Shown here in pieces: positions 1 to 13,271 of a DNA stretch of 13,271 nt. The stretch's first letter is position 1, and each line of letters begins with the position of its first letter. The stretch comes from Clostridia bacterium. GTDB lineage: Bacteria; Bacillota; Clostridia; Christensenellales; Aristaeellaceae. A program made the position numbers and the translations under genes. The notes beneath the pieces are model-generated. The model had not been told where the DNA came from, did not search any database, and saw only the letters and a list, made by a program, of their open reading frames with translations. The stretch is from assembly GCA_030526225.1 (NCBI GenBank), contig JAUNDF010000063.1, positions 1 through 13,271 of the forward strand. Reading direction: 5' to 3'.

Positions 1-1
1 G

Positions 2-57
2 CCTACCCCCACCCCGACACCCACACCTACGCCTACACCTACCCCCACCCCGACACC
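2..57 (+). repeat. Direct repeat inside the Pro/Thr-linker coding sequence: an identical 20-mer cctacccccaccccgacacc at 2-21 and 38-57 (period 36 nt).
   Basis: Both copies were read directly from the sequence. The surrounding 1-160 is ACC/CCC/ACA/CCG-rich and encodes PTPTP... low complexity. Confidence 0.8.
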
Positions 58-2254
58 TGTGCCCACCGAAACGCCGGTGCCCACACCGGTGGTGGTGTAT
101 ACCGAGCCCACTGATACCCCCGAGCCCACCGCCACACCCACGCCCGCACCCACCGCCCTGCCTGATGGCTGGCTGAGTGCCGACGAGGCCGCCGCTGCCG
201 GGTACACCTGGAAGCAGGCTGACAACGGCGTGGTCATTACGGGCTACAGCGGCACGGCAAGCAAGCTGACCATCCCCGGCAATATTGACGGCATGGCGGT
301 TACGGAAATCGGCGGTCATGCCTTCTCCGGCAACACCGCGCTCACCGGGGTGGATATCCCCGGCAGTGTGGAGCGCATCGGCGAGCTGGCCTTCGGCGGC
401 TGCATCAAGCTGGAGAATGTCAAGCTGGGGAAGGGTCTGCAGCACATCGGCGAGTGTGCCTTCTTCGGCACCGCCATCGAGAGCATCCGCATCCCCGGCA
501 GCGTGCAGACCATGGGCATCAACCCCTTTGCAAGCTGCAGCAGGCTGAACAAAATCACCGTGGATGCAGACAACAAATCCTTCCGGGTCATCGCTTCCGT
601 GCTGTTTAACACCGATAACAACACCCTGATTTTCTACCCCGCAGGGGAACAGCGCACAAGCTACACCGTCCCCGTGGGCACACAGGCCATCGGCGATTCC
701 GCCATGATGATCAACCCCTATCTGGAAACCGTCATCATCCCCGACACGGTGACCGCTATCGGCAGCATGGCGCTGGATAACCCCGCCATCAAAACCGTGT
801 GGCTGCCCAAGGGGCTGCAGACCGTGGGCGACAGCGCCTTCAACGCCCTCAGCGAGCTGCACATCCACGGCGCAAAGGGCAAGGAAGCCAAAACCGCCCC
901 CACCGCCCAGCTGCTGGAAGCAACCAGCTTTGTCATCACCGACACCAAGGCAGCCGTCACCGTGCCCAAGGGCATCAGCATCACCGATGCCGAAGCACAG
1001 ACCCAGGGCTTCCACTACGATGGCAGCCGCCTGACCCGCTATTCCGGCAGTGAAAAGAATGTGGAGGTCCCCGCGGTCATCGGCAATACCATCATCACCA
1101 CCATCGGCGAGGGTGCCTTTAAGGATTGCACCGATGTGAAGACCATCGCCCTGCCGGATACCATTGCCATCATTGAGGATGATGCCTTCCTCGACAGCGG
1201 TATTAAGGAGCTGACATTGCCCGCAAGCTGTACAACGCTTACAGACCACGCTCTGCGCGGCAAGAACTTTACCAAGATCGCAGTTGCAGAAGAAAATCCA
1301 ACTTTCTCTGCGGACAAAAACGGCATATTGTTTAATAAATACAAATCAAGGTTGGTCCGCTATCCTGCGGGGAAAGGCGGCAGTTACACCATCCCTGAAA
1401 ACATTTTTGTCATTAAGCCATATGCATTTGAGGGTGCCACTATTTCCAGCCTAACCTTGAGCAAAAACACGCGTAACATTTAGCCCAATGCATTGATTAG
1501 CATGCCCAAGCTTACCAAGATTACCGTGCACAAGGACAACAAAGTCTATGTGGTTGAGGACAATGTTCTCTATGAGAAAGACGGTCACAAACCGGTCAAA
1601 ATTCTAGCCAAAGCCATTAAGGCAGGCATGACTGTTCAGTTTGGCCGCTACGAGCAGGATGCCAACGAAGCCAACGGCCCTGAAGTCATTGAATGGCAGG
1701 TGCTGGAGGTTAAGGGCGGCAAGGCGCTGGTGATTAGCAAGTATGGCCTGGATGCACAGCCGTATAATACATCAGGAACGGTTGTCACTTGGGAAAATTG
1801 CACCCTGCGCACATGGTTGAACAATGACTTCCTGAATAAAGCATTCACCCACGCAGAACAAGCAGCCATTGAGTTGACCAATGTGGATAACAGCAAGAAA
1901 CAGGGTTATGACAAGTGGACTACCAATGGCGGCAATAATACGCTTGATAAGGTATTCCTGCTAAGCTATGCAGAAGCAAACAAATATTTCGGGGTAACAA
2001 GGGAGAATAGTAACAACACAAAATCTCGTGTACATCCCACAGACTATGCAGTAAAACAAGGCGCGTATGCTAGCAGCAGCGAAACATCCGAAGGCGCGAA
2101 AGCCGGGTGGTGGTGGCTGCGGTTGCCCGGCAGCTCTCAGGGCTATGCCGCGTACGTGAGCGCCGACGGCTCTCTCCGCGACAGCGGTGTCAGCCGCGGT
2201 TCTGGTTGTATTCGCCCCGCTTTCTGGGTCAATCTGGAATCTGGAATCTTCTAA
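2..2254 (+). CDS. Surface protein, 5'-truncated by the window edge: Pro/Thr-rich linker, BspA-type leucine-rich repeats (LRR_5) and a C-terminal DUF6273-like domain. Read through one in-frame TAG at 1481-1483. Under table 11 it splits into 2..1483 and 1493..2254.
   Basis: The frame is open from base 2 and encodes (PT)n, so the GTG at 59 is not the true start. LRR_5-type repeat motifs recur (ITGYSG..LTIPGNIDG..VTEIGGHAF, IPGSVERIGELAFGGC, IPDTVTAIGSMAL, LPDTIAIIEDDAF). The repeat unit spans the TAG in the same frame: LTLSKNTRNI[TAG]PNALISMPKLTKITVHKDNKVYVVEDNVLYEKDG. The DUF6273-like part (about 1631-2245) reads FGRYEQD..IEWQVL..TWENCTLRTWLNNDFLNKAF..VFLLSYAEANKYF..GWWWLRLPG..IRPAFWVNLE. The terminator is TAA at 2252-2254. 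Confidence 0.75.
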
Positions 2255-2350
2255 TCTTTAATCGAATGCGATTGAAATCAGGGGACGGACGAGGGTTGAC
2301 AGCAATCTTGAATCAAAAAAGCTGCAACTGTATCAAACACCGGCATGAAA

Positions 2351-2403
2351 GGGCTTCGCGGTGCAGCCGCGCCGAAGGCGCCTTTTTCCCGCCGTAAGGC
2401 GGG
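2351..2403 (+). terminator. Candidate intrinsic terminator or leader hairpins between the LRR gene and the PP2C operon.
   Basis: GCGCC-GAA-GGCGC (about 2369-2381) is followed by CTTTTT (2382-2387). A perfect CCCGCC-GTAA-GGCGGG hairpin follows at 2388-2403. The stems are short and no energy calculation was done. Confidence 0.4.
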
Positions 2404-2455
2404 TCCGATTATGTATGATTTTTCAATATTCATAACAGTTGAAAGGAGGCAACCT

Positions 2456-3250
2456 ATGCAATACCAATTAACCGTATTCCAGGCCAGCCATCAGGGTGCG
2501 CGGGAATACCAGCAGGACCGGATTGCAGCAACGCCGCAGGATGCGCAGCGGGGGATGCTGACGGTGCTGTGTGATGGCATGGGCGGCATGAAGGACGGTG
2601 AGCGCTTTGCATAGACCGGCTGTGAAAGCATGCTGCGTACCTTTAATGCATTGCCCGCCGGCGGGGACATGGCCGATACCTTGTACACCTGCTACAAGCG
2701 GGCCAATGAGGAAGCGCTGAACATCCAGAGCGAGGATGAACGCGAGGCGGGGGGCAGCACCATCACCGCCGTGTATATCCGCGGGGATGAATGCGTGTTT
2801 CTTTCCTCCGGTGACAGCCGCATCTACCTGTGCCGGGGCGGCAGCCTGATTCAGCTTTCCCGCGACCAAAACATGGGCGCGCTGCTGGATGTGCGGGCCG
2901 GGCTGGGGGATATTGACTGGTCCATGGCAAAATCCGCCATGGGCAGAAGCTCCCTCACCGGGCATCTGGGCATGAATGGCGGCCAGCCCTGTGACATCAG
3001 CCCATAGCCCTTCCGCCTTGTGCGGGGGGATGTGCTGCTGCAAATGTCGGATGGCGTGTACGGCACGTTGTCGGATGCGGAGATTCTTGCCTGCATGCAG
3101 GGCGCGGAAAACCCGGCGGAGAGCATCATCGCCGCCACCATCGGCAAAAAGAAACCCCGGCAGGATAACTGCTCGGTGATTGTAACCTATGTGCAAAGCC
3201 CTTATTTCCAGGGTGAAAAAATCACCCGGCACAAGAGAAAAAGGAGGTAA
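2456..3250 (+). CDS. PP2C-family Ser/Thr protein phosphatase (soluble), read through two in-frame TAG codons (2612-2614, 3005-3007). Under table 11 it fragments into 2456..2614, 2630..3007 and 3020..3250, all in the same frame.
   Basis: The SD GAAAGGAGG at 2441-2449 lies 6 nt before ATG 2456. PP2C motifs are spread over all three fragments in the correct order: REYQQD, CDGMGG, GGSTITAV, GDSRIYL, MSDGVYG, QDNCSVIV. The terminator is TAA at 3248-3250. Confidence 0.8.
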
Positions 3251-3256
3251 TGTACC

Positions 3257-4558
3257 TTGGCAAATGAAACGAATACTACATTCAACAACTCTAACCCAAA
3301 TGAAACGGACGAAGAATTTGACACTATCGTCTAGAAAGACGATGGTAAGGAAACTCCGGTCAACGAAACAGAATCAGGTGACGGAAATGATGCTGCAACT
3401 ACAGATATAACAACGGACGAAGCAACAAAAGATGCAGCGAACGAAACAACGAATGAAACCGCAGATGAAACGACAGACGGAGAAAACAACAAGAAATCCG
3501 AAGAACAGGTGACACAAGATAACAATTTCGTTTCAATCTCGGGAGGAGGCTTGACCGTAACAGGGCAGGATAACCAGCAAGCAGACAAACCTGCCGAAGG
3601 AGAACAGGTGACCACCGAGGCTGTTGTTCAAGCTGCCCCCATCGAAGCCCCCGCCAAAACCGGCGGCTTCAATGTATGGCCGCTGGTGATTGTGCTGCTG
3701 ATTGCGGCCCTGGGCGCAGCCGCCTTTGTGCTGTGGAAGAAGCGGCGCGCCGTGCCTGTTATCAGCGATGTGGGTGCCACGGAAGCGGGCGGCGATGTGG
3801 GCATTGGCATCCGCGTGGGCGGCGCCCAGACCATCGGCAAGCGCAGCGATCAGGAGGATTCCCTGTGCTACTCCAACTGGCAGAATGTGGCCGAGTATAA
3901 CGAGCGCGGCCTGCTGGCAGCGGTATCCGACGGCATCGGCGGGCTGGAAAAGAGCGAGCTGGCCAGCCAAACAGCCATGCGCAACATGCGGGTGCGCTTC
4001 CTGAAGCAGGACCCCGCCGTGGCCCCGGCAGACCGCCTGCTGGAGCTGACCGGTGCCGCCCAGCAGGATGTGCTTGCCCTGAACCATGCATTGCCCCAGG
4101 GCAGCAGGGTGATGGGTGCCACGCTGGTCAGTGTGCTGATTCAGCGCAACCTGCTGTGGCTGTCCTCTGTGGGCGACAGCCGCATCTACCTGTACCGCGC
4201 CGGTGCCATGCTGCCCCTCAACCGGCCCCACGTATTCGGCAAGGAGAACCGGGAGGATGCGGTGCTCACCGGCGGTGGCCGTCCCTCCGATGCACGACAG
4301 GATAAAAAGCTCACCGCCTACCTCGGGCAGGAAAACCTGCGCAAGGTGGACCGCAACGTGAACCCCATCAAGCTGATGCCCAGCGACCGTGTGCTGCTGA
4401 TGAGCGACGGCGTGTTCGGCACCGTGGGCGAGGACGAGATGGTCCGCTCCATGGGCCTTAGCCCCGACTTGGCCGCCAAGGACATCATCCGCATGGTGGA
4501 GGCCGCCAACAAACCCCATCAGGATAACGCCACCGTGGTGGTTATCGCACTGGATTAA
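3257..4558 (+). CDS. Membrane-anchored PP2C-family Ser/Thr phosphatase: acidic Thr/Asn/Glu-rich N-terminal tail, one TM helix and a PP2C domain. The start is uncertain. The core 3509..4558 is solid. The longer model starts at TTG 3257 and reads through TAG 3332-3334.
   Basis: PP2C motifs are present: GKRSDQEDS, SDGIGG, GATLVSV, GDSRIYL, MSDGVFG, HQDNATVVVI. The TM helix VWPLVIVLLIAALGAAAFVLW (about 3674-3736) is followed by KKRR, placing the PP2C domain in the cytoplasm. The SD AAAAGGAGG (3239-3247) lies 9 nt before TTG 3257, and the frame stays open into the PP2C domain except for one TAG. Alternative starts are GTG 3509 (no SD) and TTG 3551 (GGAGG at 3542-3546, only 4 nt away). The terminator is TAA at 4556-4558. 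Confidence 0.7.
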
Positions 4559-4571
4559 AGGAGGCAGCAAC

Positions 4572-5840
4572 ATGAAAAGATTCTTTGCCTTGCTGCTGGC
4601 CGTGCTGCTGCTGGCACTGCCGGTGCTGGGTCTGGCAGCAACCTATCAGGATGTGCGCGACAGCGTGGTGCGCATTTATGCTATCGGTTCGTATTACGTC
4701 CCCCAAGAAAATAGATATATAAAGGTTCCTTGGGTAGGCTCTGCCTTTGCCGTGGGCAAAAAGGGCGAGAAGGTGCAGTACTTTGTTACCAACCACCATG
4801 TAACGGGCAAGATTGGCGAATTGGATATTATTCCTGGAAGTGGCGGCATATTGGGCCAGCTGGAGAGCGTGGAGCTGTATGTTGTATATGATGATGTCAC
4901 CAACATGCTTGGTGCCCGTGTGGTGGGATGCCATGACACTGCTGACCTCGCAGTGGTGAGGCTTAATAGTGCCACGGATGTCCGCAAGCCCGTTACCTTC
5001 CATGACCCCAATGCAGATTTAAACAGCTATCAGGGTGAAGCAGTGTACGCATTGGGCTTCCCTGTCGATGGCGATGTTTTCATGAATGCAGACGCACAGG
5101 AATCATTGGCTTCTGCACCTTTTCAGGTGACGGTAAACAATGGCATAATACAGCGCATCCTACCTTCATCAGATACATTCGGCGGCGAAGTAGTTCAACA
5201 TGGTGCTGACATATCCGGCGGCAATTCCGGCGGTCCCCTTGTTACGGCGGACGGCAAGGTCATCGGCGTTAATACTGCCGGTGCGATGGAAGGCAAATAC
5301 TATAGCGCCTTGTCCTACCGCGAAGTACTGAAGATGCTGGATGATTATAATGTCCCCTACCAGACAGGCGGAGCTGGGCTGATGGGCAGCTCCCCGGTGA
5401 CATGGATTATTGCCGGTGTGCTGGCTGTGGCAGTTATCGTGGTGGTGGTGGTGCTGGTGCGCCAGAACAAGAAGGGCACCGCTGTGCCCGATGCCCCTGC
5501 GGCAGTCGCTCCCGCAGCGGATGGTGAAAAGCGTACCCTCCGCGGCGAAACGGGCGCCCTTGCCGGCAAGAGCTTTGTGCTGACCTCCGGCAAGCCGCTG
5601 GTGCTGGGCCGTGACCCGGGCCAGTGCAATGTGCTGTTCCCCAAGGATACGAAGAAGGTCAGCCGCGTTCACTGCACCATCACCCTCACCGGCGGCAAGG
5701 TTACCGTGACCGACAACCGCTCCACCTGCGGCGTGTTGATTGACGGCAACCCCATCCCCGCCGGCGGCACAAAGACATGGCACCGCGGTCAGGTGCTTCA
5801 GATTGGCTCCGATGCCGAACAGTTTACCCTGCATTCCTGA
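4572..5840 (+). CDS. Secreted trypsin-like (S1/Trypsin_2-type) serine protease domain, a TM helix and a C-terminal cytoplasmic FHA domain.
   Basis: The SD AGGAGG at 4558-4563 lies upstream of ATG 4572. The signal peptide reads MKRFFALLLAVLLLALPVLGLAA. Catalytic-triad contexts are TNHHV (His), DLAVVRL (Asp) and GGNSGGPL (Ser codon 5226-5228). The TM helix is WIIAGVLAVAVIVVVVVLV (about 5401-5460). FHA motifs read LVLGRD...SRVHC...NRSTCGVLIDGNPI. The terminator is TGA. Confidence 0.9.
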   Translation: MKRFFALLLAVLLLALPVLGLAATYQDVRDSVVRIYAIGSYYVPQENRYIKVPWVGSAFAVGKKGEKVQYFVTNHHVTGKIGELDIIPGSGGILGQLESVELYVVYDDVTNMLGARVVGCHDTADLAVVRLNSATDVRKPVTFHDPNADLNSYQGEAVYALGFPVDGDVFMNADAQESLASAPFQVTVNNGIIQRILPSSDTFGGEVVQHGADISGGNSGGPLVTADGKVIGVNTAGAMEGKYYSALSYREVLKMLDDYNVPYQTGGAGLMGSSPVTWIIAGVLAVAVIVVVVVLVRQNKKGTAVPDAPAAVAPAADGEKRTLRGETGALAGKSFVLTSGKPLVLGRDPGQCNVLFPKDTKKVSRVHCTITLTGGKVTVTDNRSTCGVLIDGNPIPAGGTKTWHRGQVLQIGSDAEQFTLHS

Positions 5841-5876
5841 TGAAGCATTATCACATATCAATAGGAGGAAATATTC

Positions 5877-6425
5877 ATGAGCAAGCAGTATTTCGACCAG
5901 AGCTACATTTCCGGCGTAACCGACGAAACCATGGCCGCCACCATGGTGGATGCTACCATGGTGGATGACGACGAATCCACCGAGCCCATCACCAACGAAA
6001 CGGAGAATGACGGCTACGGCGAAACCGAGGTTCTCCGCCCCGCAGGCTTTGAGGATGCCCGCCGTGACCCCGTGGTGGGCTGGCTGGTGTGCATCTCAGG
6101 CACAGAGCTGGGCGCCGATTTCCGCATCCACGAGGGCTGGAACACCATCGGCCGCGACCCCTCCAACGACATTGTCATCAACGACCCTGCCGTATCTGCC
6201 GACAAGATGTGCACTCTGCTGTACGATGACCCCACCAAGGCATTCATCATCGCCCGGGGCAACGGCCGCAATCCCTCCCGCATCAACGGCCGCCCGCTGG
6301 TCAGCGAAAAGGAGCTGGCACCCTTCGATCACCTGACCATCGGCAACACCGAGCTGATTTTCGTCCCCCTGTGCGGCGAACAGTTCTCCTGGGAAAGCTT
6401 CCGCAAGGACAACGAAAAGGCATAA
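5877..6425 (+). CDS. Small soluble FHA-domain protein with an acidic, Thr-rich N-terminal tail.
   Basis: The SD AGGAGG at 5863-5868 lies 8 nt before ATG 5877. The FHA core reads GWLVCISGTELGADFRIHEGWNTIGRDPSNDIVINDPAVS...NPSRINGRPL...LTIGNTELIF. The terminator is TAA. Confidence 0.9.
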   Translation: MSKQYFDQSYISGVTDETMAATMVDATMVDDDESTEPITNETENDGYGETEVLRPAGFEDARRDPVVGWLVCISGTELGADFRIHEGWNTIGRDPSNDIVINDPAVSADKMCTLLYDDPTKAFIIARGNGRNPSRINGRPLVSEKELAPFDHLTIGNTELIFVPLCGEQFSWESFRKDNEKA

Positions 6426-6461
6426 CCATGACCCTGCGCAACATTGCATAAAGGAGAGTGA

Positions 6462-8303
6462 TTGTGCCCCATGAGCGAAATGTGCTACCGGTGCATGACC
6501 GAAACCCTTGAAAACGGCACCTGTACCCGATGCGGCAAGCCGAGGTACGTGCCCGAGCCCTCCAATGCCGATGCACTGCCTGTGGGCACCCGGCTGGATA
6601 ACGGCAGCCCCGTGGTGGGCGCCATCCTTGGCCGGGGCGGCTTTGGCATTACCTATGTGGCGCTGGATACGGAAGTGAATCCCCCGCAGAAAATCGCCCT
6701 GAAGGAATACATGCCCCGCCACATGGCCACCAGAAGCGGTCTCAATCTGCAGGTGGACCCTGCCCATCAGGAGGAATACGAGCATTCCCTGCGCGCCTTC
6801 GCCCGGGAAAGCAGCGTGATCGACCGCCTGAAGGAGCACCCCAACATCGTGAAGGTGTTCTATTCCTTTAGGGAAAACAACACCGCCTACTACGGCATGC
6901 AGTTCCTGGAGGGCATGAGCCTGAAGGAATGGATTAAAAAGAGCGGCAAGCCCATGTCCGGCAAGGAAGCATGCATGCTGCTCAATCCCATCATGGATGC
7001 GCTGGCCTACACCCACAAGCAGGGCCTGCTGCACCGTGACATCAGCCCCAACAACATCTTCCTGTGCGGCACCGGCCAAAAGGACGTAACCGCCATGACC
7101 CCCAAGCTGATTGACTTCGGTGCCGCCCATGCCTATGTGGGCGATTATACCAAATCTCTTGCGCTGATTAAGACCAAGGGCTTCACCCCGGTGGAGCAGA
7201 TTCTCTACGGCGCCGAGTGTCAGGGCTCCTGGACGGATGTGTACGCCTTCTGCGCGGTGTTCTACTACGCCATCACCGGCCGCAATCTGCCCGACTCCAA
7301 GGATCGCTACATCGACAACGCCACCTTCCTCACGCCCAATGAGCTGGGGGCAAAAATCCCCAAGGAGGCCGAGAACGCCCTGCTCTCCGGTCTGGCCATC
7401 AACTACAAGGAGCGCACCCAGAACATGGCCGAGCTGCAGGAGAAGCTGTGCAAGGCCTTCGGGATTGCGCCCTACCACTACACCAAAATGGTGGAAAGCA
7501 CCCCGGTGGATCCCGACCCCGGCCCCGCGCCTGTCCACACACCGGTACCCAGACCCGTCGAAGCGCCGGTGCAGCACGAGGCCCCTGCGGCGGTCAAATC
7601 TGCCGACACCCGCATGCGGGACAGAATCCTTGGGGGCATGCTGGAGCTGATTATCTGCTACGCCGCGGCCTTCCTGCTGGTGCCCGGTTGGCAGGCACTG
7701 CTCTACGGCCTTGCCGGCATGACGCTGCTCAACACCGTGCTGTGCTCTGTGGGCGGCGGCGGTACCCTTGGCATGCGCCTCAGCCGCCAGCGGCTGGTGG
7801 ACCAGTCCGGCCGTGTGCCCAGCGTGGCGGTATCCCTTGCATACAGCCTGCTGACGGCGTTCTTCCCCTTCTCCGTGCTGGATTGCCTTGTCAACAGCGG
7901 CGACAAGCCCTGCTGGCGTGAAAAGATGCTGGCGGTGCAGACCGTTTCCTCCGGGGAGAAGGCGCCTGAGGCTCCCGCTGCCGCTGCCCAGAAGAAGCCC
8001 GTCGGAAAGGCTTGGCTGGAGACGGCCGCCGGTGAACGGATTGACGTGGAGAACGGCACGCTGGTCACCCGCCACGGCAAGGACTGCAAGGGCTACAAGC
8101 ATACCATCATCCTCAAGGATGAAATGGTATCCGGCAAGCATTGCGAATTCTATCAGGCAAGGGGCGGCTGGTACGTGCAGGATCTGTACTCCACCAACCA
8201 CACCTACATCAACGGCTCTGCCATTCCCCCCGCGGCTGAGGTTCCCCTTTCCGACGGTACGCGGGTGACCATCGGCGGCACCGACATGACCTTCCATTGC
8301 TGA
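6462..8303 (+). CDS. Hanks-type Ser/Thr protein kinase with an N-terminal CxxC..CxxC zinc ribbon, a central RDD-like multi-TM module and a C-terminal FHA domain.
   Basis: The zinc ribbon CYRC...CTRCG lies at 6483-6533. Kinase motifs are GRGGFGITY (from 6630), ALKEY, HRDISPNN (catalytic Asp 7038-7040) and DFG (7113-7121). The RDD-like part reads RILGGMLELIICY...GTLGMRLSRQRLVDQSGRVPS. FHA motifs read SGKHC...DLYSTNHTYINGSAI. The start is TTG 6462 (GGAG at 6453-6456) or ATG 6471. The terminator is TGA. Confidence 0.9.
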   Translation: MCPMSEMCYRCMTETLENGTCTRCGKPRYVPEPSNADALPVGTRLDNGSPVVGAILGRGGFGITYVALDTEVNPPQKIALKEYMPRHMATRSGLNLQVDPAHQEEYEHSLRAFARESSVIDRLKEHPNIVKVFYSFRENNTAYYGMQFLEGMSLKEWIKKSGKPMSGKEACMLLNPIMDALAYTHKQGLLHRDISPNNIFLCGTGQKDVTAMTPKLIDFGAAHAYVGDYTKSLALIKTKGFTPVEQILYGAECQGSWTDVYAFCAVFYYAITGRNLPDSKDRYIDNATFLTPNELGAKIPKEAENALLSGLAINYKERTQNMAELQEKLCKAFGIAPYHYTKMVESTPVDPDPGPAPVHTPVPRPVEAPVQHEAPAAVKSADTRMRDRILGGMLELIICYAAAFLLVPGWQALLYGLAGMTLLNTVLCSVGGGGTLGMRLSRQRLVDQSGRVPSVAVSLAYSLLTAFFPFSVLDCLVNSGDKPCWREKMLAVQTVSSGEKAPEAPAAAAQKKPVGKAWLETAAGERIDVENGTLVTRHGKDCKGYKHTIILKDEMVSGKHCEFYQARGGWYVQDLYSTNHTYINGSAIPPAAEVPLSDGTRVTIGGTDMTFHC

Positions 8304-8317
8304 AAAGAGGTATTTAT

Positions 8318-9886
8318 ATGATGAAGAAGATTGCGGCACTTGTGCTTGCACTGTGCATGCTGACCATCTGCTTCGGCGCCTTTGCCGCGGGCAGCAACAG
8401 CACCATGAGAATCCTCGGCGGCTCCATCGCCCCGGATAACACCACCACCCTCAACGTGTTTATCCCCGTGACCACACCTGTCAGCGCTGATGAGCTGGAT
8501 GTGCAGGTGGACGGCACCCCCGTGACCATCACCCAGCTGACCGGCGTGCCCACCACCTGGGTGGTTCTGCTGGACAGCTACAGCGAATGGGGCCCTGAGC
8601 GCCTGGACCACATGAAGGATGTGGCGCTGGAAATCATCTCCAAGAACATGGGCAGTGCCGATAACGGTCTGGTCCTGACCGGCGGCAGCGCCTGGAAGAA
8701 CAGCAAGGATCTGCAGTTGGGCAACATCGGCACGGTGAAGGAGGCCATCAAGGCATTTGACGGCAAGAAGTCCGGTGTCACCCCCAATGTGCCTGCGCTC
8801 CATTTCCTCACCGATATGTGGGCCGTTGAGTACATCAACCCCCGCGTGTGTCTGGTGGTCATCAGTGACGGTGCCACGGTGGCCAAGTCCAGCTGGGACA
8901 GCGTGCAGGAAAAGCTGACCAGAACGGATGCCGCCCTGTACGGCATTGCGCTGGTGAAGAACAACGAAAAGCACAAGACCGATGCCCTCCGGACCGTGGC
9001 CGAAAGCAGTCAGGGCGGCAGCTTCTACCGCTATGACAAGAGCGTAAAGACTGAGGATGCGCAGAGCTTCTGCATCAACACCGCCGCCAACATTGTCACG
9101 GCCGAGGCCTGCCAGATGCGGCAGCTGAGCATTCCCGGCACTGTGTTTACCGCCGTACCCAGCCGCTACACCATCGCCCTGAAGAACTCCAATCCTCCGC
9201 TGGATGCCGAATATGTGCTGACCGAGAACGACAAGAAGGGCTACCGCATCGGTGAACCGGCCGAGGGCGAAGAAGCAACGGAAAACGCAGGCGGCGTCAT
9301 CGGTGCAAACGTGCCTGAGGCAGAAGATCCCTGGTACACGAAGACCGAATACCTGGTGGTGGCCGGTCTGGCGCTGGTGCTGGTCATTCTGCTGATTGTG
9401 CTGGTGGTATCCGGCAAGAAGAAGAAGGCCAAGGCTGCCGCTGCCGCCGCTGCTGCTGCCGCAGAAAAGGCAAAGCAGGAGCAGGCCGCTGCAACCGAGG
9501 TCAATGCACCCTCTGCCTTTGTGGCGGATGATGACGGCGGTGCCACTGAGGTTTTGACGCCTCCCGCCGGTGCCCGCCCCACCTGCCGCCTGCAGCTGGC
9601 ACAGGAGAACAGCAGCAACGTGTACACCGCCGAATTTGCCAAGAATCTGCTGGTTGGCCGCAGCTGCCAAAAGGCTGACCTGACCGTGTACCCCGAGGAC
9701 AAGAAGATTTCCGGCCTCAACAGCGAGTTCTCCTTCCACAATGGTGTCATGACCCTGAAGGACCGCGGCTCCACCAACGGCACCTTCCTCAACGGCTCCA
9801 AGCTTACCGGCGAGGTGCGCGTCAATCAGCATGACGTTGTGAAGATGGGCACCACCCGGTTCCGCGTTACCTGGACGGTACTGTAA
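8318..9886 (+). CDS. Signal peptide, a vWA-like extracytoplasmic domain, a TM helix, a Lys/Ala-rich juxtamembrane tract and a C-terminal FHA domain.
   Basis: The SD AAGAGG at 8305-8310 lies 7 nt before ATG 8318, which I prefer over the track's TTG 8297. The signal peptide reads MMKKIAALVLALCMLTICFGAFA. vWA-like strands are WVVLLDSYSE and CLVVISDG, but the MIDAS motif is not a canonical DxSxS, so the vWA call is moderate. The TM helix is YLVVAGLALVLVILLIVLVV (about 9350-9410). FHA motifs read LLVGRS...ISGLNS...DRGSTNGTFLNGSKL. The terminator is TAA. Confidence 0.8.
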   Translation: MMKKIAALVLALCMLTICFGAFAAGSNSTMRILGGSIAPDNTTTLNVFIPVTTPVSADELDVQVDGTPVTITQLTGVPTTWVVLLDSYSEWGPERLDHMKDVALEIISKNMGSADNGLVLTGGSAWKNSKDLQLGNIGTVKEAIKAFDGKKSGVTPNVPALHFLTDMWAVEYINPRVCLVVISDGATVAKSSWDSVQEKLTRTDAALYGIALVKNNEKHKTDALRTVAESSQGGSFYRYDKSVKTEDAQSFCINTAANIVTAEACQMRQLSIPGTVFTAVPSRYTIALKNSNPPLDAEYVLTENDKKGYRIGEPAEGEEATENAGGVIGANVPEAEDPWYTKTEYLVVAGLALVLVILLIVLVVSGKKKKAKAAAAAAAAAAEKAKQEQAAATEVNAPSAFVADDDGGATEVLTPPAGARPTCRLQLAQENSSNVYTAEFAKNLLVGRSCQKADLTVYPEDKKISGLNSEFSFHNGVMTLKDRGSTNGTFLNGSKLTGEVRVNQHDVVKMGTTRFRVTWTVL

Positions 9887-9893
9887 CAATACA

Positions 9894-9935
9894 CGCCGCC
9901 GCATGGCTGTGCTGTGCGGCGGTAAATTCCTTTTA
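9894..9935 (+). terminator. Candidate rho-independent terminator after the vWA-FHA gene.
   Basis: A perfect 8-bp stem pairs CCGCCGCA (9896-9903) with TGCGGCGG (9915-9922) around an 11-nt loop. A T-rich stretch TTCCTTTTAT (about 9927-9936) follows. It begins 8 nt after the TAA at 9884-9886. Confidence 0.55.
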
Positions 9936-9958
9936 TCATTGAAAGCGGGTGTTATTGT

Positions 9959-10864
9959 ATGTACAACAACCCTCAGCAAACGCTGGCAGGGCTTTGGGGC
10001 TTTGTTGCCGGCTATTTCGCGGTGATTGCCGTCATCAGTGCGGCCATTACGGTGCTGACCATCATCGGCTTGTGGAAGACCATTGCCAAAACAGGGGAGC
10101 CCGGCTGGAAGGCCCTCATTCCGATCCTGAATGAATATGTCCTGTGCGACCGCTGCTGGGAAAAGAACGCGTTCTGGGTGATGCTGGGCGTGGCCCTGGG
10201 CTGCGGTGTGCCCGTGGTGAACATCATCTGCAGTATTGCAATGGTGGTGCTGTGGGTGATGCTGTGCATCCGCATCAGCGCTGCCTTCGGCAAAGAGCTG
10301 CCCTTCGCCATCGGCATGATTTTCCTGCCCCCGGTGTTCTTTATGATTCTGGGCTTTGGCAGCAGCCGCTACATCGGCCCCTCCAGCTTCAAAATCCCCA
10401 CCCCCGTGCCGGAATACGGCAACAAGGCCAGGGCTGATTACAGGCCCGCAGTGGATGACATGGACAAAACCGTCCCCGCACCCCGTCCTGTCATGCCGCC
10501 CCCTGCCCCTGTGCAAGTCCCCGCGCCTGCTCCCGCAGAGCAGCACTATCATGTGCTGACGGTTGAAATGAAAAATGTGCACAGCGGCACCGTGTACAAA
10601 AAGTCCGTCAAGGGCAGCAAGCTGAATGTGGGCCGCAGTGCATCCAAGTCCCAGCTGGTCATCGCCGATGATGCCAAGCTGTCCGGTGCGCATATTCAGC
10701 TGAAGTGCAAGGACAACACCCTGTACATCACCGACCTTGAAAGCACCAACGGCACCGCCGTCAACGGCAAAAAGCTGACCCACACCGCCCCGCTGAAGCC
10801 CACCGACACGGTGACCATCGGCAAGGCACAATACACCATAAAATGGAAGTACAGCCTGAAATAA
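9959..10864 (+). CDS. DUF5684-like polytopic membrane domain, a Pro-rich linker and a C-terminal FHA domain.
   Basis: The sequence GLWKTIAKTGEPGWKALIPILNEYVL...ISAAFGKELPFAIGMIFLPPVFFMILGFGSSRY matches my recollection of the DUF5684 family signature. FHA motifs read LNVGRS...LSGAHIQL...DLESTNGTAVNGKKL. The SD before ATG 9959 is weak. The terminator is TAA. Confidence 0.85.
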   Translation: MYNNPQQTLAGLWGFVAGYFAVIAVISAAITVLTIIGLWKTIAKTGEPGWKALIPILNEYVLCDRCWEKNAFWVMLGVALGCGVPVVNIICSIAMVVLWVMLCIRISAAFGKELPFAIGMIFLPPVFFMILGFGSSRYIGPSSFKIPTPVPEYGNKARADYRPAVDDMDKTVPAPRPVMPPPAPVQVPAPAPAEQHYHVLTVEMKNVHSGTVYKKSVKGSKLNVGRSASKSQLVIADDAKLSGAHIQLKCKDNTLYITDLESTNGTAVNGKKLTHTAPLKPTDTVTIGKAQYTIKWKYSLK

Positions 10865-10885
10865 GGCGCGACAAGGAGGAGAACC

Positions 10886-13119
10886 ATGTCCAGCAAACTT
10901 AGACAAACCACCGCTCTCCTGCTTGCCCTTGTGCTGCTGATGGCAGCCATGCCCGCCGGGGCAGAGGTAAAGCTGTGGCGGTGCCAATATGATCAAACAG
11001 TTAATTTTGACACGAAATGCAGTGAGTGCGGAAGAAAAAAGGAGTATGCTATAATCAATCCCGCACAAGCGGTTATATCTGTTGATTTAAGAAAACGTAT
11101 GGCATATGAGCGATACGATATGAGTTATACCGGTCGTATCGATAGCTCATGGGAAGAATTAGGTTTAGAACCTGTTCCGTTGCATTATACAAAAGGCTAT
11201 ACATACTGCAAGCTGAAGGATGGAACCATAGAAATCTATAGAATAGATATTTCTTTCGGCGAAGAAAACTGTACCATTCCAGAAACCATTGATGGATATA
11301 AGGTTACTGCAATAGGTGACAATGCACTAGAATAGGGCTATGACCTGCAGACTGTTACCATCCCTGCTAGTATAACCTATATTGGAGGAAACCTACTCTG
11401 CAATGCAGATGAATTGAAAACAATCATTATTGATGGCGAGTCACAGTATCTTTAGGTTGTGGACGGCGTTTTGTTTACAAAGACAGATAAGCGTTTGGTG
11501 TGCTATCCGCCCAAGAAAGAAAACAAGCATTATTCAATTCCTGAAGGGACAAGGATATCGGTTCGACAGCGTTTGCCTATGCGCAGTTTTCTTCCTTGAC
11601 TATCCCTGACAGTGTGAAGGTGCTAGAGGATAACGTGTTTTATGAATGCGATAAGTTGGGCAGTGTTACTCTCCCAAGCAGTGTAGAGGCAATTGGTACG
11701 AATCCGGGATATGGTGACAAAGATTACAGAAGGAACAGAAGGACCAAAAGGCTGCCTATCAAGGTTGATAAGAAAAATCCATATTTTGAAACTGTCGATA
11801 ATTCACTGATTTCAAAAGTAGACAAGCGATTGATTAGTTGCTGGCAGACGGGTTCGTGTACAGTTCCTGATAGAACTGTAACTATCGGTGAAAAAGCATT
11901 TGCTTAGACTAAAGTTACAGAAGTTATTCTGCCTGATTCGGTCAAGAGCATAGAAAACAAGGCTTTCGAACGATGTGAACAGCTTACTGAAATCAGACTT
12001 CCGGAAAATTTGGAAAGCATAGGAGAATATGCATTTGCATCCTCCGGTTTGACATCTGTCACCTTTCCAACATCACTGCAAACAATTGGCGACAGGGCCT
12101 TCAGAGGAAGCAAGCTAAAGGAAATAGATTTTGGTGAAGGTTCTCCCCAATTGGGTGTTTAGGTATTTTCGTATAATGATAATTTAATAAATGTAGAAAT
12201 ACCCGGGAATATTAATCAATTGCCATTTTGTACCTTTAACAGTTGTGAAAATTTGGAACAGGTTTTGATACGCGAAGGCGTGAAGAACATTGGCAATCAG
12301 GCATTTTATTCTTGTGTGAGTCTGAAGAGCGTTATCATTCCTGACAGTGTCATAGGTAACAATATTTTTCAGGACTGTCCAAATGTGATTGCCACGGTAA
12401 ATGAAGGATCTTATGCGGAGTAGTATTGCAAAAACAATGGTATAAAGTATGTGCTTAACACAGAGTATGTACCTGCTGTGTTGGAAAATGCGCCCTACAA
12501 GCTGAATCTTCCCATTGCTGATGGTCACTATATAATGAAAATGATATATGGTGACAAATGCACAATCGAAATGGTAGATGTTCCATAGGGAGCACATGAA
12601 GCATGGATACGGACAACAGAAGGATATGACTATAGCTATGTTTATGGCAATTAGTTATATTTCGAATCGAATGAGTTCATGAAAGAGGGCACAAGCTTAG
12701 CATATGTGCTTGTGTATGATGACAACGATAATGTGTTGTATTCGTATCCTCTTGAGATTACGGCAACAAGCCCTAATGGAACGTTTGATGTAGCTGTTGT
12801 CAGCGTTGAACTGTTTGATGGGCCAACAGAAGAAGCAAAATGGGTCCGCATACAATGCAAAGCAGATTCTCGGGATGTGCAAAAAGCAATAACCTCGGGA
12901 GAAATCAAATCTCTTTCATGTAACGGTGGATTTGCGTTCACTGCTTTTGCGAGCAAGCCATATCTTGGTTAGGATAATAATTTGATTTTTTAGTATCAAC
13001 CGTCTTCAGATGAGGGAACTTTCAAGGTTGTGATGGATGTTTTTGCCAAAGGCTACAGCAATGCCGAAGTTACAGTGGAATACACTGTGAAAGATGGTGA
13101 ACTTACCTTCACCCCCTAA
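10886..13119 (+). CDS. Secreted BspA-type LRR (LRR_5) protein with an uncharacterised C-terminal beta-rich region. It is read through nine in-frame TAG codons and needs one -1 frame change near 11551, which may be an indel, an assembly error or pseudogenisation.
   Basis: The SD AAGGAGG at 10873-10879 lies upstream of ATG 10886. The signal peptide reads MSSKLRQTTALLLALVLLMAAMPAGA. LRR_5 motifs continue across the first five TAGs (11333-12421): AIGDNALE[TAG]GYDLQTVTIP, SQYL[TAG]VVDGVLFTKTDKRLVCYP, IGEKAFA[TAG]TKVTEVILPDSVKSIENKAFERC, LGV[TAG]VFSYNDNLINVEIP, EGSYAE[TAG]YCKNNGIKY. After the last four TAGs (12586, 12652, 12970, 12991) only the open frame continues. The frame is 2 up to 11551 and 1 afterwards. 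Frame 1 stays open, apart from TAGs, to TAA 13117-13119. I checked this codon by codon for 11881-12720 and 12961-13119 and relied on the supplied ORF track elsewhere. Confidence 0.65.
11540..11600 (+). other. Frameshift site within the LRR gene (frame 2 to frame 1, net -1).
   Basis: Frame 2 reads YSIPEGT and then degenerates (RISVRQRLPMRSFLP) to TGA 11597-11599. Frame 1 from 11551 reads KDIGSTAFAYAQFSSLTIPDSVKVLEDNVFYEC, which is the expected LRR_5 continuation. Frame 1 is closed upstream by TGA 11542-11544, so the switch must lie within 11545-11553. Confidence 0.75.
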
Positions 13120-13187
13120 GTCTCCCCCCACCTCTGCACCCCCTTCCCACCGCCACCCTACAACCACCCCCAAAGGAGGCAAAAACC

Positions 13188-13271
13188 ATGAATATGGAAG
13201 TTGCGATGTTTTTTATGGTTTTGGGTACACTCATCATTGCGCGAATGATTACCTCGTTTTTCAACAATGAC
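13188..13271 (+). CDS. Start of a small hydrophobic or membrane protein, 3'-truncated by the window edge.
   Basis: The SD AGGAGG at 13174-13179 lies 8 nt before ATG 13188. The product begins MNMEVAMFFMVLGTLIIARMITSFFNND. Only 28 codons are visible. Confidence 0.45.
   Translation, partial: MNMEVAMFFMVLGTLIIARMITSFFNND

Follow-up and report, generated by a model that had tools for sequence, protein, structure and literature searches.

What kind of history gives a gene whose first hundred nucleotides have the composition of the surrounding chromosome, while the remaining two kilobases do not? The question is raised by a leucine-rich repeat (LRR) gene at positions 10886–13119 of the contig JAUNDF010000063.1 from a Clostridia bacterium of the family Aristaeellaceae (assembly GCA_030526225.1). 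The window analysed here is the entire contig (C61, 13,271 nucleotides); coordinates refer to it unless another contig is named, and all its features described below lie on the + strand. The source metagenome-assembled genome (MAG) has 2.19 Mb in 136 contigs, 57% GC and 80% completeness, and its genus is represented by this single genome. The first-pass annotation of the window described an AT-rich gene body behind a GC-rich leader and took it for foreign DNA swapped in as a cassette, rather than for a product of gradual drift. We find that the gene is probably a chimera, in which a native ribosome-binding site and Sec leader are fused in frame to a recently imported, AT-rich LRR body that uses TAG as a sense codon.

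The break itself is observed directly. The GC content is 0.583 over positions 1–10885, 0.60 over 10886–10980 and 0.61 over 10886–10984, and then falls to 0.40 over the gene body, 10985–13119, which comprises 711 codons, nine of them sense TAG, and the stop. If the third-position GC (GC3) is followed along the open reading frame (ORF), the maximum-likelihood change-point is nt 10985, with a 2-lnL interval of 10976–10994; for plain base composition it is nt 10986, and the GC skew changes sign at the junction as well. GC3 equals 0.70 in the 33 leader codons (23/33), 0.37 in the 711 body codons and 0.78 in the upstream gene; at the rate of the body, 23 or more GC-ending codons out of 33 have P = 1.4e-4. 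Genome-wide, 25 out of 4187 1-kb windows have GC below 0.42 (the lowest 0.6%), and three of these are within the LRR body. Thus the GC-rich leader and low-GC body of the first-pass annotation are borne out by the fall from 0.60 to 0.40 and by the GC3 change-point at 10985, and its hand count of 16/60 G+C at 12181–12240 is exact.

The leader (10886–10984, 33 codons) is of the host style. It encodes a putative Sec-type signal peptide, MSSKLRQTTALLLALVLLMAAMPAGA, followed by EVKLWRC, and export of the product to the cell surface is predicted; the call is based on the n-region, the h-region and the AGA/E site (…AMPAGA/EVKLWRC), all judged by eye. The break is situated just 3' of the cleavage site. 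Upstream of the leader, at 10873–10881, a candidate Shine-Dalgarno (SD) sequence, AAGGAGGAG, is read from the sequence 4 nt 5' of the ATG and 8 nt 3' of the upstream stop. Positions 10964–11035, just past the signal peptide, encode the protein stretch WRCQYDQTVNFDTKCSECGRKK, which is similar to a degenerate zinc-ribbon motif, of a type present at the N-terminus of the neighbouring kinase; the composition break falls within this stretch.

The statistics of the body, also observed directly, are not those of the host. The GC at the first, second and third codon positions (GC1, GC2, GC3) is 0.46/0.37/0.37, against 0.54–0.56/0.42–0.51/0.72–0.80 in host-like LRR_5 arrays of the same genome, and the fraction of the FYMINK residues is 0.31 against 0.20–0.26. 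The relative synonymous codon usage (RSCU) of the body has correlations of -0.03 and -0.14 with that of the host genes in the window, whereas the latter correlate with each other at 0.81; it resembles the RSCU of other low-GC islands, best of all that of an LRR island on contig C109 (r=0.63). Drift in place should shift GC3 first; since GC1, GC2 and the amino-acid usage are shifted too, such drift is disfavoured. Moreover, the frame stays open across the switch, which is complete within about 20 nt, as would be expected of a recombination junction and not of drift. Composition, codon usage, TAG density and the abruptness of the switch thus support an evolutionary history of the body different from that of the leader and the operon, and it is this part of the first-pass claim of foreign replacement that can be upheld.

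The second line of evidence comes from TAG codons. Judging by its genes, the host appears to read TAG as an amino acid. In a continuation test we considered codons preceded by 60 open, strongly coding codons and asked for 60 more in the same frame; genome-wide, coding continued past TAG in 67% of cases, past TAA in 8.7% and past TGA in 4.7%. The amino acid appears to be Glu: two TAG sites, one in MnmA and the other in the EAA loop of an ABC permease, align with it. One case is discordant: the in-frame TAG of DnaJ (contig C25, + strand, 20855–21974) aligns with the conserved Tyr of the J-domain motif KRxxYD, and at this position, compared with two solved DnaJ structures, the relatives do not have Glu. 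The prfA gene was not found in the MAG, which is only 80% complete, and aragorn yielded no tRNA with the CUA anticodon; no report of a bacterial TAG-to-Glu reassignment was found in the literature.

The core genes (1168 ORFs, 485,000 codons) contain 235 TAG codons, with a density of 0.48 per 1000 codons and only 0.037 of the number expected from composition. In the body the density is 12.7 per 1000 codons, 0.83 of the expectation and about 26–27-fold above the host core, and TAG accounts for 14.5% of the GAA, GAG and TAG codons taken together, compared to 0.8% in the core. As the first-pass annotation stated, nine of the 13 in-frame TAGs of the window are in the LRR gene. With expectations derived from the position-specific composition of the body (about 710 codons), the coding frame contains nine TAG (10.9 expected), no TAA (14.9 expected) and no TGA (6.8 expected); the total of zero TAA and TGA against 21.7 expected has P ~4e-10, and each of the other five frames contains 16–58 of them. 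Hence the gene is under coding selection, with TAG behaving as an ordinary codon. The nine TAG sites all occupy variable positions of the repeats. At the GSYAE-x-YC cap motif the homologues have Q (19 cases), E (10), R (8) and T (6), so that the LRR gene itself does not decide the amino acid.

A gene fresh from a standard-code donor would be expected to have no in-frame TAG, and a residence in this chromosome long enough to saturate it with TAG should also have shifted its GC towards that of the host. From these two expectations, the simplest reading is a long evolution of the body in an AT-rich, TAG-sense setting, followed by a recent arrival.

The domain content is equally a matter of observation. 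The BspA-type LRR_5 repeat array occupies 11285–12387 (Pfam LRR_5, PF13306, 1.2e-63); the profile match has 213 bits against the cut-off of 27.7 bits and consists of three stretches, and four hits of a scan of the same genome fall within this interval. In the AlphaFold2 (AF2) model the predicted local distance difference test score (pLDDT) of the LRR solenoid is 70–90, and that of the whole model is only 56. The best Foldseek hits of the model are 4fs7 (3e-10), 4gt6, 4cp6 (PcpA), 6mlx (TpLRR) and 4h09. By profile and model, the product is predicted to be a BspA-type LRR_5 protein with a right-handed solenoid like that of solved gut-bacterial members. The array is followed at 12463–13116 by a 218-residue, beta-rich C-terminal orphan domain, modelled by AF2 with low confidence. 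No recognised wall-anchor domain was found in the protein.

Read with translation table 11, the frame is shredded; with TAG as sense, 10886–13119 is open except for one frame change, which is one base short and is located at 11545–11560, within an LRR unit (…YSIPEGT / IGSTAF…). Apart from this change, each half is open. The first TAA or TGA of frame A is at 11597–11599, where this frame closes, so that 237 codons are open in all, 204 of them past the junction before the frame change; frame B opens at 11545. No slippery heptamer was seen there by eye. This is the only frame change in the window, in agreement with the first-pass annotation, and it would represent either an error of sequencing or assembly, or a gene inactivated very recently.

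The following scenario would account for these observations. The 5' part (10873–10984), containing the ribosome-binding site, the Sec signal peptide and the first seven mature residues, would be host DNA. From about 10985 on, at least 2.1 kb would have evolved for a long time in a genome or mobile element of about 40% GC that also read TAG as sense, and would have reached the 57%-GC chromosome too recently to drift towards its composition. Recombination would have joined the leader and the body in frame just past the signal-peptide cleavage site, and the imported gene, encoding a BspA-type LRR_5 protein with orphan domains at both termini, would now be transcribed as the last cistron of the operon, and its product exported via the native leader. 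What we infer is thus that recombination took place, in which direction the DNA moved and from what kind of donor; the break, the codon statistics, the neutral frequency of sense TAG and the domain content are shown by the sequence.

Several points weigh against this scenario. Neither a donor nor a close relative of any part of the gene was found in any collection searched, so that transfer is deduced from composition alone. The ORFs of the window contain no mobility genes, and there are no flanking repeats and no tRNA; specifically, no recombinase, att-like repeat or attC-like site was found in the window. The 3' boundary is not seen within the contig, and hence one misjoin at about 10985 could create the pattern. 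The leader has only 33 codons. Part of the contrast in TAG density could be due not to the residence time but to selection that removes TAG from expressed core genes. Finally, 16 of the 50 low-GC islands of at least 700 nt are within 500 nt of a contig end, compared to 3.8 ± 1.8 expected (at most 10 in 2000 permutations). Such enrichment fits strain-variable accessory regions, and it also warns of misjoins, as the assembly is fragile at such DNA.

The searches for relatives were as follows. Among 5.8 billion proteins, the best matches to the 507-residue part of the product had 28–41% identity and covered the LRR region only, and the N-terminal 130 residues had no match in the protein search. 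The C-terminal 218 residues, compared with 1.84 billion representative proteins, yielded their own fragment and one spurious eukaryotic sushi-repeat hit. No close match to the body was found in the GTDB genomes, two metagenome scans, IMG/VR or plasmids; the best match in the phage collection was at most 35% identical, and the best LRR match among 120 genomes of the family was 40–41% identical. For the upstream neighbour of the LRR gene, which encodes DUF5684 and FHA domains, neither 40 relatives nor the protein database yielded an orthologue, and no orthologous locus was found in these 40 relatives. Exact look-ups of the body ORFs found nothing on record, and neither the leader (10840–11000) nor the body has a second DNA copy or paralogue in the 80%-complete assembly. 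A phage origin was considered and rejected: neither the C61 gene nor the other TAG-rich islands have a phage hallmark or PHROG function, the island proteins match nothing in PHROG or Pfam, the MAG lacks genes for a terminase, portal or capsid, and no related viral contig was found.

The alternative that survives best, although we regard it as unlikely, is that the body is a long-term resident of the flexible genome of the lineage, where, without the force keeping the core GC-rich, it has drifted to an AT-rich composition and gathered TAG at the neutral rate. Both TAG saturation and low GC3 are expected from a long neutral evolution under a TAG-sense code, and the failure to find a donor is consistent with it. 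The other LRR_5 genes bear on this alternative in both directions. Out of the 15 LRR_5 arrays in the genome, six are low-GC (0.35–0.43), and other extracytoplasmic segments of the window are AT-richer as well; at the same time, the remaining nine arrays are host-like (0.56–0.63). Therefore low GC is frequent among the LRR_5 genes of this genome but not intrinsic to the family. The first-pass annotation would have given up the replacement if low GC were typical of the LRR_5 genes throughout the genome, and the outcome is about halfway. A resident origin is also opposed by two further points: expression-dependent selection cannot produce a break of about 20 nt inside one mRNA, and GC1, GC2 and the amino-acid usage moved along with GC3.

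The C109 LRR island is an internal control in this respect. At C109:1718–3100, within a 38-kb contig, a TAG-rich, low-GC LRR gene with six TAGs in 460 codons is situated between host genes just past a host terminator, and has an SD, a promoter region and a signal peptide of its own, the latter two AT-rich. This is the classic shape of an insertion, again contrary to residence.

Less probable still is an assembly chimera, in which the last 2.3 kb would come from another TAG-sense, low-GC organism or phage of the same sample, joined at a shared k-mer near 10985. A single junction would suffice, since low GC runs to the contig end, and the enrichment of low-GC islands at contig ends is four-fold. 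One independent 1.2-kb Logan contig, 100% identical to 9724–10953, stops 32 nt before the break, and the body ORFs, as said, are not on record elsewhere. On the other hand, the join keeps the frame, which stays open for a further 204 codons up to the frame change, and it lies directly behind a cleavage site, ahead of a protein that lacks its own signal peptide but requires one. The body also uses the rare TAG-sense code that the host appears to have, no repeated k-mer ties the junction to another contig, and the equivalent TAG-rich LRR island on C109 is demonstrably integrated.

The first-pass annotation also implied a cassette with exact junctions at both ends, and here the two sides differ. 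The 5' break is supported, at 10985 and within an open frame. The 3' junction at the stop codon is not established, as the GC-rich sequence said to resume after the stop is confined to a C-tract of 57–68 nt; by the scan criterion this C-rich, G-poor tract extends over 13104–13176, covering the last four codons, the stop and the spacer. This tract begins 13 nt before the stop, and its part 13120–13175 has GC of 0.68; the downstream ORF is low-GC again. The latter starts at 13188 (MNMEVAMFFMVLGTLIIARMITSFFNND…), has an SD sequence AAAGGAGG at 13172–13179, and is cut by the contig end at 13271. As the GC of this ORF start is 0.37, the low-GC block is at least 2.3 kb long and its far edge is not seen within the contig. 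No contig of the assembly overlaps the window end.

A dedicated cassette exchange, with a conserved leader serving as the expression site and alternative LRR bodies swapped behind it in the manner of shufflons, integrons, pilE/pilS or diversity-generating retroelements (DGR), is more doubtful than a misjoin. It would explain the position of the junction exactly at the boundary between the leader and the mature protein, and the LRR genes of this genome are repeatedly mosaic: comparable intragenic GC3 steps are seen in C16:18602–21664, C16:16366–18558 and C134. In addition, two LRR_5 genes share 198 nt comprising the upstream region and the signal peptide (C16:18353–18550 and C104:5357–5554) at 93% identity, and their mature parts diverge completely past this common leader. 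However, the assembly contains no further copy of either the leader or the body of the gene considered here, no recombinase or reverse transcriptase is encoded in the window, which is also free of inverted repeats and attC-like sites, there are no silent cassettes nearby, and the difference in composition argues for foreign DNA and not for in-house reshuffling. The 3' ends of C104 and C16 encode near-identical LRR stretches, and these two contigs may abut.

Finally, a decaying pseudogene drifting to AT, suggested by the frame change and by the nine in-frame TAGs that are stops under table 11, is very improbable given the absence of TAA and TGA in 710 codons as opposed to the other five frames, the LRR_5 profile match that passes through the TAGs, and the apparent sense meaning of TAG throughout the genome.

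Several known systems resemble a chimera of a native leader and an imported body. The product shares with BspA-type LRR_5 proteins the LRR_5 profile, the solenoid, the GSYAE-x-YC cap, the Sec signal peptide and the abundance of paralogues in gut Firmicutes; it differs in that its N-terminal 100 and C-terminal 218 residues have no relatives, no wall anchor is recognised, and the gene has nine sense TAGs. In the amelioration framework of Lawrence and Ochman, acquired genes reportedly remain compositionally atypical until they have drifted to the host composition. The body is similar to such genes in its low GC at all codon positions, foreign codon usage and lack of a close orthologue in relatives, but here the atypical part is not a gene complete in itself, as it starts within an ORF whose leader is native, and neither mobility genes nor a tRNA or repeats accompany it. 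The C109 LRR island likewise consists of a BspA-type LRR gene that is AT-rich, contains TAG at its neutral frequency and is closest to the body in codon usage; unlike the C61 gene, which borrows a host-style SD and leader, it has its own SD as well as its own promoter region and signal peptide, the latter two AT-rich, and host flanks on both sides.

The mosaics known from pneumococcal pbp and pspA are products of homologous recombination among alleles that can be recognised. As in these mosaic antigen genes, blocks of different ancestry are joined in frame in a gene for an exposed protein, and the pattern recurs in several paralogues of this genome; in contrast to them, the blocks are about 20 GC points apart, and there is no allele series for this gene. 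Gut phages of the code 15 type (TAG = Gln) are AT-rich and have frequent sense TAG, and LRR_5 proteins occur in gut phage records; the differences are the lack of a phage hallmark here and the host meaning of TAG, which appears to be Glu. Thus the formation of a mosaic surface-protein gene with horizontally acquired DNA is a well-known event, and what is unusual is the genetic-code context, which an unseen AT-rich gene pool would share. No literature on mosaic BspA genes in gut Firmicutes was found.

This context extends to the other AT-rich genes. Among the 30 low-GC ORFs of at least 200 codons, the TAG counts are significantly too uneven for one common rate (G=77.7, df 29, p=2.5e-6). Of these ORFs, 16 are at 0.5 or more of the expected TAG number, including the body gene, the C109 LRR gene, two ORFs on C28, and ORFs on C125 and C130, and 12 are below 0.25, including the restriction-modification pair on C17 and the LRR gene on C104. 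The split fits imports both from TAG-sense and from standard-code donors. A tentative generalization, for which we would claim somewhat less than an even chance, is that the TAG content serves as a passport for accessory DNA: low-GC genes with TAG at the neutral frequency would come from an unseen AT-rich, TAG-sense reservoir, and TAG-poor ones from standard-code donors. Sister lineages, plasmids or phages could form such a reservoir. If so, the altered code would be older or more widespread than the TAG-poor core of the host suggests, and it would filter the gene flow in one direction, as standard-code genes could be imported and TAG-laden genes could not be exported.

Neutral TAG in a foreign segment set against a depleted host core is indirect evidence for a wider set of AT-rich genomes or mobile elements with the same code. 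The observed-to-expected TAG ratio per gene could be used to sort the accessory genome by the genetic code of the donor, and thus to probe how a code change shapes transfer. Gene calling with table 11 shreds such TAG-sense genes and thereby hides them from the protein databases.

The most AT-rich island of the genome is C28:1–2100 (GC 0.28–0.33), which adjoins a contig end beside host-type genes. Its two orphan ORFs match no Pfam or PHROG family, and their sense TAGs, 12 in one and 8 in the other, reach a density of about 35 per 1000 codons.

The LRR gene is preceded by an operon of FHA, kinase and PP2C genes. The order on the contig is an LRR_5/DUF6273 gene, two PP2C phosphatases, a trypsin-FHA protein, an FHA protein, a Ser/Thr kinase with FHA, a vWA-FHA protein, the DUF5684-FHA gene, and then the low-GC LRR gene. 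The DUF5684-FHA gene (9959–10864; Pfam DUF5684 2e-17, FHA 1.2e-14) is the last gene of host composition and was used as the composition reference, with GC of 0.58 and GC1/2/3 of 0.54/0.43/0.78. The LRR gene starts 21 nt downstream, no terminator-like site was found between the two, and the LRR gene is the next cistron of the operon. No terminator was found 3' of it either.

The C-rich tract behind the LRR gene is one of only four in the 2.19-Mb assembly that have at least 58% C and at most 10% G over 45 nt, and two of these are on C61 (1–59 and 13104–13176). None of the four adjoins another island, and hence the tract was rejected as a recurrent border motif. Neither the tract nor the block has an Rfam match. 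The tract at 1–59 encodes a Pro/Thr linker. One frame of the tract 3' of the LRR stop would give a Pro/Ser/Thr linker, and this tract may be what remains of an older host gene, or may serve the next cistron as an unstructured leader.

In the upstream LRR_5/DUF6273 gene, GC3 also drops, from 0.72–0.96 to 0.36–0.72 over the C-terminal 350 codons (region 1000–2254). This gene has a sense TAG at 1481, and in the DUF6273 part it shares 52% identity with a C56 paralogue that contains two TAGs.

In an unrelated Lachnospiraceae MAG (L012, JALCRM010000001.1), the nearest LRR_5 match, at locus positions 6001–7668, is situated in a patch with GC of 0.35–0.39 between flanks of 0.50–0.56, and AT-rich LRR_5 islands may be a wider habit of gut Firmicutes.

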